Position numbers and translations under genes: made by a program. Of a DNA stretch of 64,000 nt, positions 22,254-24,688 are shown piece by piece. Below the pieces are notes generated by a model. The model did not search any database and was not told the DNA's origin. It saw nothing but the letters and a program-made list of their open reading frames with translations. Numbering within the stretch: position 1 is the first letter of the stretch; every line of letters starts with the position of its first letter. This stretch comes from Eledone cirrhosa (Eukaryota): the NCBI GenBank assembly GCA_964016885.1, contig OZ024747.1, forward strand, positions 29,450,001 to 29,514,000, given 5' to 3'.

Positions 22254-24429
22254 CCCAACCCCAAAACTAACCCTAACCCTAACCCTAAACCTAACCCTAA
22301 ACCTAACCTTAACCCTAACCCTAACCCAACCCCAACTCCAACCCCAAACCTAACCCTAAACCTAACCCTAACCCTAACACTAACCCTAACCCGAACCCTA
22401 ACCCAAATCCCAACCCAACCCTACATATAACCCTAACGCTAACCCTAACCCTAAACTCAACCCTAACTCCAACCCTAACCCCAACCCTAAACCTAACCCT
22501 AACCCTAACCCTAACCCTAACCCTAACCCTAACCCTAAACCTAACCCTAACCCTAAACCTAACCCTAACACTAACACTAAACCTAACCCTAAGCCTAACC
22601 TTAACCCTAGCCCTAACCCTAACCCTAACCCTAACCCTAACCCTAACCGTAAAACTAACCCTAACACTAACCCCAACCCTAACTTCAACCCTAACCCCAA
22701 ACTAACCCAAACCCCAACGCTAAACATAACCCTAACGCGAACCCTTACCCTGACCCTAACCCAACCCTAACCCTAACACTAAGCCTAAGGCTATCCCTAA
22801 CCCTAACCCTATCCCAAACCCTAATCCAATCCCAAAACCTAACAATAACCCCAACCCTAACCCCACCCTAACTCCAACCCTAACCCTAACCCTAACCCTA
22901 ACCCTATCCCTAACCCTAACCCTAACCTTAACCCTAACCGTAAACCCTACCCTAACCCTAACGCTAACCCTAACCCTAACCCCAATCCTAACCCCAACTC
23001 TAACTCCAACCCTAACACTAAACCTAACTCTAACCCTAACCCCAACCCTAACCGTAAAACTAACGCTAACACTAACCTTAACCCTAAACCTAACCATAAC
23101 CCTAACCCTAACCCTAACCCTAACCCTAACCTTAACCCTAACCCTAACCCTAACCATATACCAAACCCCAACAATAAAACAAAACCAAACCCTAATCCTA
23201 ACCCTAACCCTAACCCAAGTCCTAACCCTAACTCTAATCCTAACACTAACCGGAACCATAAACCCAACACTAACCCCCAACCTAATCCTAACCCTAACGA
23301 AACCCAAACCCTAAACTTAACCCTAACCCTAAACCTAGCCCTAACCCTAACCCTAACCCTAACCTTAAACCAAACCATAACAAAACCCTAACCCTAAACC
23401 TAACCCTAACCCTAACCCTAACCCAAACCCTACCCCTAACACTAACCCAAAGCCCAACCCCAACCCTAACCCCAACCCTAAACCTAAACCTAACCCAAAC
23501 CCTAACCCTTACCCTAACCCTAACCCTAACGCTAACCCTAACCCTAACCCCAAACCTAACTTTAAAACTAACCACAAACCTAACCCTAACCCTAACCCTA
23601 ACCCCAACCCTAACCCTAACACTAACCCTAACCCTAACACTAAATCTATCCCAAACCCTAACCCAATCCAACAACCTAACCCTAACCCCAACCCTAACCC
23701 CAACCCTAACCCCAACCCTAACTCCAAAGCTAACCATAGCCCTAACCCTAACCCTACCCCTACCCTAATCCTAACCCCAACCCCAACAACAAATATAACC
23801 CTAACCCTAATCCCAACACTAAACATAACACTAACGCTAACCCTAACCCTAACCCCAATCCTAACCCTCACCCTAACCCAAACCCCAACGCTAAATATAA
23901 CCCTAACGCTAACCCTAATCCTATCCCTAGACCAAACGCTAACACTCACCCTAACCCTAACCCTAACCCAAACCCCAACAATAACACAAATCCAAACGCA
24001 AATCCTCATCATAACCCTTACCCAAATCCTAACCCTAACCCTAACCCTAACCCTAACCCTAACCCTAACGAAACCCAAATCCGAAGCTTAACCCTAACCC
24101 TAACCTTAACCCAAACCCTAACCCTAACCCTAACCATAACACTAACCCTAAAACTAACCCTAACCCAAACCCAAACCCTAACACAAACACAAACCCTAAC
24201 CCTAACCCTAACCCTAACACAAACCCTAACCTTAACCCAAACCCCAACGCTAAACATAATCCTAACGCTAACCATAACCCTAACCCCAACCCTAACCCCA
24301 ACGCTAACTCCAAACCTAACACTAACCCTAACTCTATCCCTAACCTCAACCCCAAACCCAACCGCAACAATGACTCTAACCCTAACCCTAACTGTAACCC
24401 GAACCCTAACCTTAACCCTGAACCTAACA
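22254..24429 (+). repeat. Copy 2 of the block at 1-2281, truncated by the satellite junction
   Basis: Begins CCCAACCCCAAAACTAACCCTAA as at position 1. Colinear, with offsets 22253 to 22148. Confidence 0.9.
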
Positions 24430-24688
24430 AATTGATTATTTCAGGTTTTTCACAAATTGATCATTTTACACAGTATTTCGAAAAATTGTTTTTTTTTCAA
24501 AAAACATTGATTTTTTTTCTTTCGAAATATATACTTTCTGATTTCGAAAATTGATATATATTTTGTATTTTTCAAAAATTTTTCAACGTGTTGAAACACA
24601 ATGTATAAACGCATTTTTTTGAAAAAAAACATTTTTTCCAAATACTGTGTAAAATGATCAATTTGTGAAAAACCTAAAAAAATCAATT
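24430..24688. repeat. Long inverted-repeat arms of the satellite monomer (shown for monomer 1: 24430-24504 and 24615-24688)
   Basis: The reverse complement of the right arm, AATTGATTTTTTTAGGTTTTTCACAAATTGATCATTTTACACAGTATTTGGAAAAAATGTTTTTTTTCAAAAAA, matches the consensus left arm at 71 of 74 positions by hand alignment. Confidence 0.95.

Follow-up and report, generated by a model that had tools for sequence, protein, structure and literature searches.

The window analysed here, a 64,000-nucleotide stretch of the Eledone cirrhosa genome (G000:C7:29,450,001-29,514,000, in an assembly of 3.0 Gb), holds degenerate telomeric repeats at positions 1-24,429 and then a satellite of 20% GC that runs from ~24,430 to the window end. 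On scaffold C7 the features are ordered as an rDNA unit, GC-rich spacer-like repeats, a telomeric block of ~174 kb and the satellite. On this 94-Mb scaffold the telomeric block occupies 29.3-29.5 Mb, far from the chromosome ends, and is gap-free on both sides; the sequence across its junction with the satellite is free of Ns from C7:29,290,001 to 29,519,034, and the scaffold gaps to the right of the junction are 44.6 kb and 388 kb away. Matches to 18S, 5.8S and 28S rDNA are found to the left of the telomeric block (L099:1088-5841; L038:4500-10000; L064:1-400), the rDNA unit adjoining the block directly on that side as 18S, 5.8S and 28S pieces. The 28S sequence is broken up by a decayed retroelement that ends at L038:6370, the presumed R2 target site. 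The spacer-like repeats, of ~600 bp, grade into telomeric repeats via a short zone of TTAGAC/TTAAAC units.

The telomeric sequence in the window is the right-hand part (1-24,429) of a degenerate interstitial (TTAGGG)n array on the minus strand, C-rich on the plus strand, which begins near 29,300,300 and extends over ~174 kb (G000:C7:29,300,3xx-29,474,429). Perfect hexamers account for 33-46% of bases along the array and 38% next to the join, and no gradient of purity or decay was found along the 174 kb. The last 7.9 kb on the telomeric side (16,540-24,429) is a collinear duplicate, 96-99% identical, of a stretch that begins 5.4 kb to the left of the window and reaches position 2281; the offset is 21.9-22.3 kb in seven of eight one-kb windows and 24.2 kb in the remaining one. 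This duplicate is cut off at the junction. Two uncut sister copies of the junction-side sequence (1916-2281, 98.6% identical; 9437-9838, 98.8%) run on into further telomeric repeats, both continuing with CTAA (CTAACATAAACCC at 2281 and CTAAAATAAACCC at 9838). The final 300 telomeric bases match each of them at 98.3%, the next best match being 83%. The 174-kb array contains 21 CCCTGAACC sites, of which eight (two in close copies, six in older ones) keep the continuation that is absent at the junction, and the junction can thus be seen to cut a telomeric unit that already existed. Elsewhere in the block, a 7.0-kb stretch located 130,642-123,620 bases before the window start is 100% identical to a neighbour 7.7 kb away, a sign that it was duplicated either very recently or by the assembly.

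The satellite (24,430-64,000, plus strand) is arranged head-to-tail in monomers mostly of 276-278 or 295-297 bp. It extends for 44.6 kb to the right of the junction, up to a 200-N gap at C7:29,519,054; beyond a 343-kb piece (109 kb of which was examined) and a second 200-N gap, at C7:29,862,587, satellite in the same orientation continues for 304 kb to C7:30,166,997. A short-period repeat with runs of G/T borders both gaps on their inner sides (L007:5254-10000, L008, L028, L022:1-4586), so that the 343-kb piece may have been misplaced by scaffolding. The first monomer, of 297 bp (24,429-24,725, plus strand), has no identical copy in the C7 array. Its left inverted arm (24,429-24,504, plus strand) and right inverted arm (24,614-24,689, minus strand) are each 76 nt in length and 92% complementary, and the single-stranded monomer is predicted to fold into a hairpin of -72.4 kcal/mol (z = -12.3, with none of 100 shuffles as good). 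All of the ~2500 monomers carry the same arms. The first two monomers are private to the array edge, with nearest-neighbour scores of 0.955 and 0.768 against 0.96-1.0 in 12 interior monomers, and a search for a higher-order paralogue of this pair, which would show the donor linker, found none.

Exact matches to a 47-mer from the monomer all lie inside tandem blocks (682 of 682: 48 + 289 on C7, 5 + 10 on C8 and 330 on C10). A satellite block on C6 has no exact match to this 47-mer and was found by similarity search, suggesting that more diverged blocks may remain unseen. A wider AT-rich satellite family is present on several scaffolds (C8:31.0-31.3 Mb, C10:37.575-37.587 Mb, C13:26.4 Mb, C18:13.06 Mb and C25:19.94-19.97 Mb), its members sharing modules (TTTCGAAA, AAATTGAT and TCAGAA) in differing orders. 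On C8 the satellite also occurs in three short clusters that share a left flank (31,552,151-31,554,894; 31,586,600-31,590,462; 31,622,080-31,625,518; L117), in which the monomers flip strand repeatedly, apparently via the inverted arms; these clusters offer a better site than the window for studying template switching.

The change from telomeric repeat to satellite on C7 is abrupt. The initial annotation placed AACA at positions 24,426-24,429 with no transition zone, matched the left side to the copies that end at 2281 and 9838 and continue with CTAA, and put the first base of the satellite at the start of its left inverted arm. All of this is borne out by the sequence, with the arm starting inside the overlap. 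A 19-mer that spans the join occurs only once in the assembly. The accompanying claim that AACA (24,426-24,429, plus strand) is common to both sides stands for the telomeric side, whilst in the satellite AACA is only a minority variant of the linker, seen in 40 of 157 monomers of the junction block, in 368 of 1236 over both C7 blocks and in 9 of the 103 long monomers, the class to which the first monomer belongs. It is present at five of the first six boundaries after the junction; when 2494 monomers were compared, the 50 most similar to the junction monomer were in no case preceded by AACA, with the same outcome in a smaller set. Since the linker base goes with the monomer upstream of it, either variant may have been the donor: the overlap is 4 bp if the donor was an AACA variant, 1 bp if it was the common A-run variant, and comes to 1-4 bp overall.

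Both partners were cut at internal positions of pre-existing repeats, no bases are inserted between them, and the first monomer consists of left-arm bases throughout, with no change of strand at the junction. A fold-back join to the complement of the right arm was considered and rejected on account of these left-arm bases. The site in the monomer that most resembles a telomeric repeat, AAACCTAA at positions 242-249, was not used. The G-rich telomeric strand reads away from the satellite, and GTT would match the register of the telomeric repeat only given an AACA donor. Among 400,000 random joins of the two sequences, an overlap of at least 4 bp arises with P = 1.3% (1.5% if the most favourable of the common variants is taken), and a 4-bp interval would touch an arm edge by chance in 3.4%, 6.8% or 13.5% of cases, depending on whether two outer edges, four edges or eight edges are counted; all of these are one-off, after-the-fact values.

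We consider the junction to be, most likely, the outcome of one end-joining event, whether a fusion or a deletion at a pre-existing boundary, that made use of 1-4 shared bases and at which the position of the hairpin edge was probably incidental. At the level of sequence comparison, end joining is supported by the collinearity of the last 7.9 kb with an upstream stretch that runs past the breakpoint. Both the pathway of joining and the order of events are what we infer from such comparisons. The telomeric block would first have decayed and become duplicated in multi-kb units; a break within it would then have been joined to a break in the A-rich linker of the satellite by non-homologous or microhomology-assisted end joining; and the inner parts of both arrays would since have kept turning over by unequal exchange, leaving the edge monomers as single copies. 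The microhomology-mediated joining that was first suggested is plausible as end joining with a short overlap, though that overlap may be a single base and a special role for the arm edge is unsupported. Counting against end joining with an incidental edge are the 1.3% probability of a 4-bp overlap, should the donor have been AACA, and the location of two of ten other satellite ends at the linker/arm start. On this reading, the junction is a repair scar with no predicted function.

Whether the arm edge matters can be judged from the other ends of the satellite. Twelve ends were mapped and 11 counted as independent, one C10 end with a repeated flank being dropped and the repeated C8 ends being represented by one copy each. 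Their positions on the monomer are 1 (the C7 telomeric junction), 295, 283, 22, 242, 206, 167, ~88, 144, 193 and ~5, where ~88 and ~5 were set by eye, rearranged monomers having led the aligner to give 68 and 222. The initial annotation proposed a search for the same monomer position at other junctions; the ends are instead scattered (P = 0.51 for clustering, 0.70 without the C7 telomeric junction and 0.82 when ends against related satellites are also removed), and consequently the match to the arm edge at the C7 junction is probably due to chance. Two of the ten other ends do fall at the linker/arm start, against ~0.4 under a uniform expectation. One is the far end of the C7 array; the other is the C6 start, where the neighbouring related satellite has that module too.

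A second telomere/satellite junction, at C6:50,272,560, provides a further comparison. Here a 26-kb degenerate, G-rich telomeric array meets a related satellite of 421 bp in a join that is single-copy and equally abrupt. Read leftwards from the join, it has no base in common with the 54 other copies of this position of the satellite; the join coincides with the start of none of the 25 longest inverted arms, and its polarity is opposite to that of the C7 junction. Neither the monomer position used on C7 nor an overlap on the satellite side recurs here. The telomeric side of the C6 junction has no paralogue above 88% over 60 bp that would define the right-hand overlap. The arm-edge position at C7 hardly departs from chance, if at all, and does not recur at the C6 telomeric junction. 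The possibility that the telomeric arrays of C6 and C7 arose recently from one source was also considered, and rejected: none of 26,272 non-perfect 60-mers is shared between them.

The C6 region as a whole (G000:C6:50,246,500-50,560,000; L158, L157, L156, L136-L155, L167-L170) is a second arrangement of the C7 kind, with dispersed-type DNA followed by 26 kb of degenerate (TTAGGG)n, 30 kb of the 421-bp satellite, ~250 kb of the 277/296-bp satellite and a gap. The telomeric block starts abruptly and in register (…GATAGGGTTAGGG), after sequence that resembles a LINE coding remnant. Such a start would be expected of a chromosome end that had been healed and subsequently fused to satellite. Near 50,302,636 (L139), at the start of the C6 array, arms are joined directly via a GATC core, and compact hairpin units of ~97 bp precede the full monomers.

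An alternative to simple end joining, and one that we think unlikely, is that the hairpin itself directed the event, the 76-nt arms being extruded as a hairpin or cruciform whose base was acted on by a nuclease or a stalled fork, with the resulting end joined to telomeric DNA. The arm start at 24,429, inside the overlap, the strong predicted fold of the monomer and the two other ends at the linker/arm start would all fit such an event, as would the association of junctions with palindromes in one of four bivalve satellites (PMC5139131). The stem is also extended by the adjoining telomeric bases to a degree that only 45 of 1500 other AACA-ending telomeric sites equal or beat; when random telomeric positions are taken, however, 646 of 3000 extend it equally. 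Moreover, the same arms are present in every one of the ~2500 monomers, the ends are unclustered overall, and both of the other arm-edge ends have a simpler cause in local similarity to their partners, namely the 5-bp ATAAA shared with a retroelement and the module shared with the 421-bp relative. The template switch at the hairpin base envisaged in the initial annotation finds no support, given that no strand switch is seen at the junction.

The far end of the C7 array bears on several of the other possibilities. At 30,166,997 the array is joined to the interior of a dispersed element with 138 matches, via the 5-bp overlap ATAAA. The element contains a 669-residue frame with weak matches to reverse transcriptase (E = 1.8e-4) and GIY-YIG (E = 2.3e-4) domains, both below the Pfam cut-offs; this pairing is presumably the mark of Penelope-like elements, and we therefore refer to the element as Penelope-like. 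It includes a 1.8-kb inverted duplication at 95.6% identity (L095:6998-10000, L096:1-2900) and, ~75 bases from the satellite, a hammerhead-like motif. The expected telomeric continuation was absent from the next 43 kb past the far end, and no target duplication was found at the array ends; the initial annotation had proposed a check for resumption of the telomeric unit there, with or without such a duplication.

The two ends of the C7 array are in nearly the same phase. Position 294-2 of the monomer opens the array and position 290-295 closes it, so that the first and last partial units sum to a whole monomer within 0-1 bp, which would occur by chance in ~3.4-3.6% of cases, or ~8% given the (TAAA)n tract of the element. 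This phasing brings to mind the reintegration of a satellite circle. The C7 array of more than 350 kb would in that case have been seeded by one whole-monomer circle, opened once in the A-rich linker at the hairpin base, captured between the decayed telomeric block and the Penelope-like element and then enlarged in place. Complementary partial units are the signature given for Drosophila Rsp-like circles (PMC7403614). We nevertheless regard seeding by a circle as a more doubtful proposition than a hairpin-directed event. The start and far end of the array lie across two 200-N gaps and the partly examined 343-kb piece, the first and last monomers are not each other's nearest relatives, and the (TAAA)n tract favours this linker in any case (8.3% of overlaps of at least 5 bp, against 3.4% under uniformity). 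The C10 and C8 arrays lack complementary ends, and no empty site is known. Were it true, the locus would be a base-resolved record of a centromere-sized array planted at a buried chromosome end beside rDNA.

Lower again in our estimation is healing by telomerase, in which a break in the satellite would have been capped at the junction base and the repeats would then have decayed, been duplicated and ended up inside the chromosome once the rDNA segment had been attached. The polarity fits a telomere capping the satellite, and a break in an AACA donor would expose GTT in register, comparable to the 2-3 in-register bases at insertions of mammalian interstitial telomeric sequences (ITS) (PMC7215372). 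The unit next to the junction runs on in eight other copies, however, six of them older, which would call for a crossover only a few bases from the junction, an unlikely event; nor is there any passage from decayed to perfect repeats along the 174 kb, with only 38% perfect hexamers beside the join. The earlier argument that a truncated, degenerate telomeric copy speaks against telomerase at this base is supported by the 98.3% sister copies, the continuation of the unit elsewhere and the lack of a purity gradient. An older healed end further to the right, since deleted, is possible.

That the join is an assembly artefact, two repeat contigs having been wrongly merged, appears highly improbable. 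In favour of a misjoin, scaffold gaps lie 44.6 kb and 388 kb to the right. Contigs from public reads (four runs from at most two samples) were aligned to 24,330-24,560, where only the satellite part aligned and the telomeric bases 24,330-24,428 were skipped, an outcome that is neutral. The join itself, on the other hand, is gap-free and carries private variants on both sides, typical of true array edges, and a similar join is present on C6. An overlap of 1-4 bp is also far below what long-read assemblers join on. The gap-free sequence and the private first two monomers indicate that the junction is real in the assembly rather than misjoined.

Least probable of all is the insertion into the telomeric array of an element bounded by terminal inverted repeats (TIRs), whether a MITE or a foldback element, with later amplification in tandem. 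The monomer does have long inverted arms, the first beginning at the junction, but the last base of the array lies within the linker, ~34 bases beyond the right arm. The exact 47-mer matches include no dispersed copies bounded by the arms, the six arm starts found with a preceding G or T all proved to be point variants inside arrays, and, scaffold gaps between the two ends notwithstanding, a Penelope-like element at the far end, with neither telomeric resumption nor target duplication, leads us to reject the TIR-bounded insertion with target duplication that had been put forward at the outset.

The combination of rDNA, a 174-kb interstitial telomeric block and a large satellite, with its counterpart on C6, should help, as markers, in mapping where chromosomes of this lineage once ended or fused and where their centromeres lie. 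Should the junctions of this satellite in different individuals turn out to be concentrated at the hairpin base, they would offer a testable case of structure-directed satellite mobility.

No report of telomere/satellite junctions in cephalopods, or of the C7 locus itself, was found in the open-access literature. Large interstitial telomeric blocks that are flanked by satellites or lie next to NORs/rDNA are well established as het-ITS (PMC6410037). The C7 block resembles these in being large, non-terminal and composed of degenerate TTAGGG repeats with multi-kb duplications, flanked by satellite on the right and by rDNA on the left. The het-ITS described in that source come from vertebrate and plant cytogenetics, whereas the C7 block is seen at single-base resolution in the assembly of an invertebrate. 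Short ITS at mammalian double-strand breaks have in-register bases at their insertions (PMC7215372), and the C7 join would likewise have a few bases in the register of the repeat (GTT) if the donor was AACA. The mammalian sequences, as described there, are short and fresh, however, whilst the repeat at the C7 join is a decayed, truncated duplicate within a 174-kb block.

In molluscs, the satellite junctions covered by the cited account are all abrupt and mostly scattered on the monomer; palindromes are not needed, although the ends of one family are found at palindromes (PMC5139131). The satellite studied here is similar in its abrupt transitions, in the scattered positions that most of those families also display and in having no need of palindromes. 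The bivalve satellites in that account form short dispersed arrays beside anonymous DNA or Helitrons, in contrast to the arrays of 40-300 kb beside telomeric repeats seen here. Joins between satellites in Drosophila have overlaps of 4-7 bp and complementary end monomers, and non-homologous end joining (NHEJ) can use fewer than 5 bp (PMC7403614). The 1-4 bp at the C7 junction falls within that limit. The Rsp-like case parallels C7 in that two unrelated tandem repeats are joined with a short overlap and that first and last partial monomers are complementary in some arrays. In the Drosophila case, as presented in that source, one junction recurs in many clusters and spreads, whereas the C7 junction is single-copy with an overlap of 1-4 bp.

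A related arrangement is that at the tandem fusion sites of the Indian muntjac, where telomeric repeats lie directly on satellite I and the junctions are attributed to illegitimate recombination (PMC2760882). There, as on C7, telomeric repeats are found immediately beside satellite within a chromosome. The legend in that report has (TTAGGG)n reading into the satellite; the polarity of the C7 junction is the opposite, whilst the C6 junction has the muntjac polarity. Set beside these systems, the C7 junction is another example of the abrupt repeat-to-repeat junctions that are already established and, as read here, is of little consequence beyond adding one more such join.
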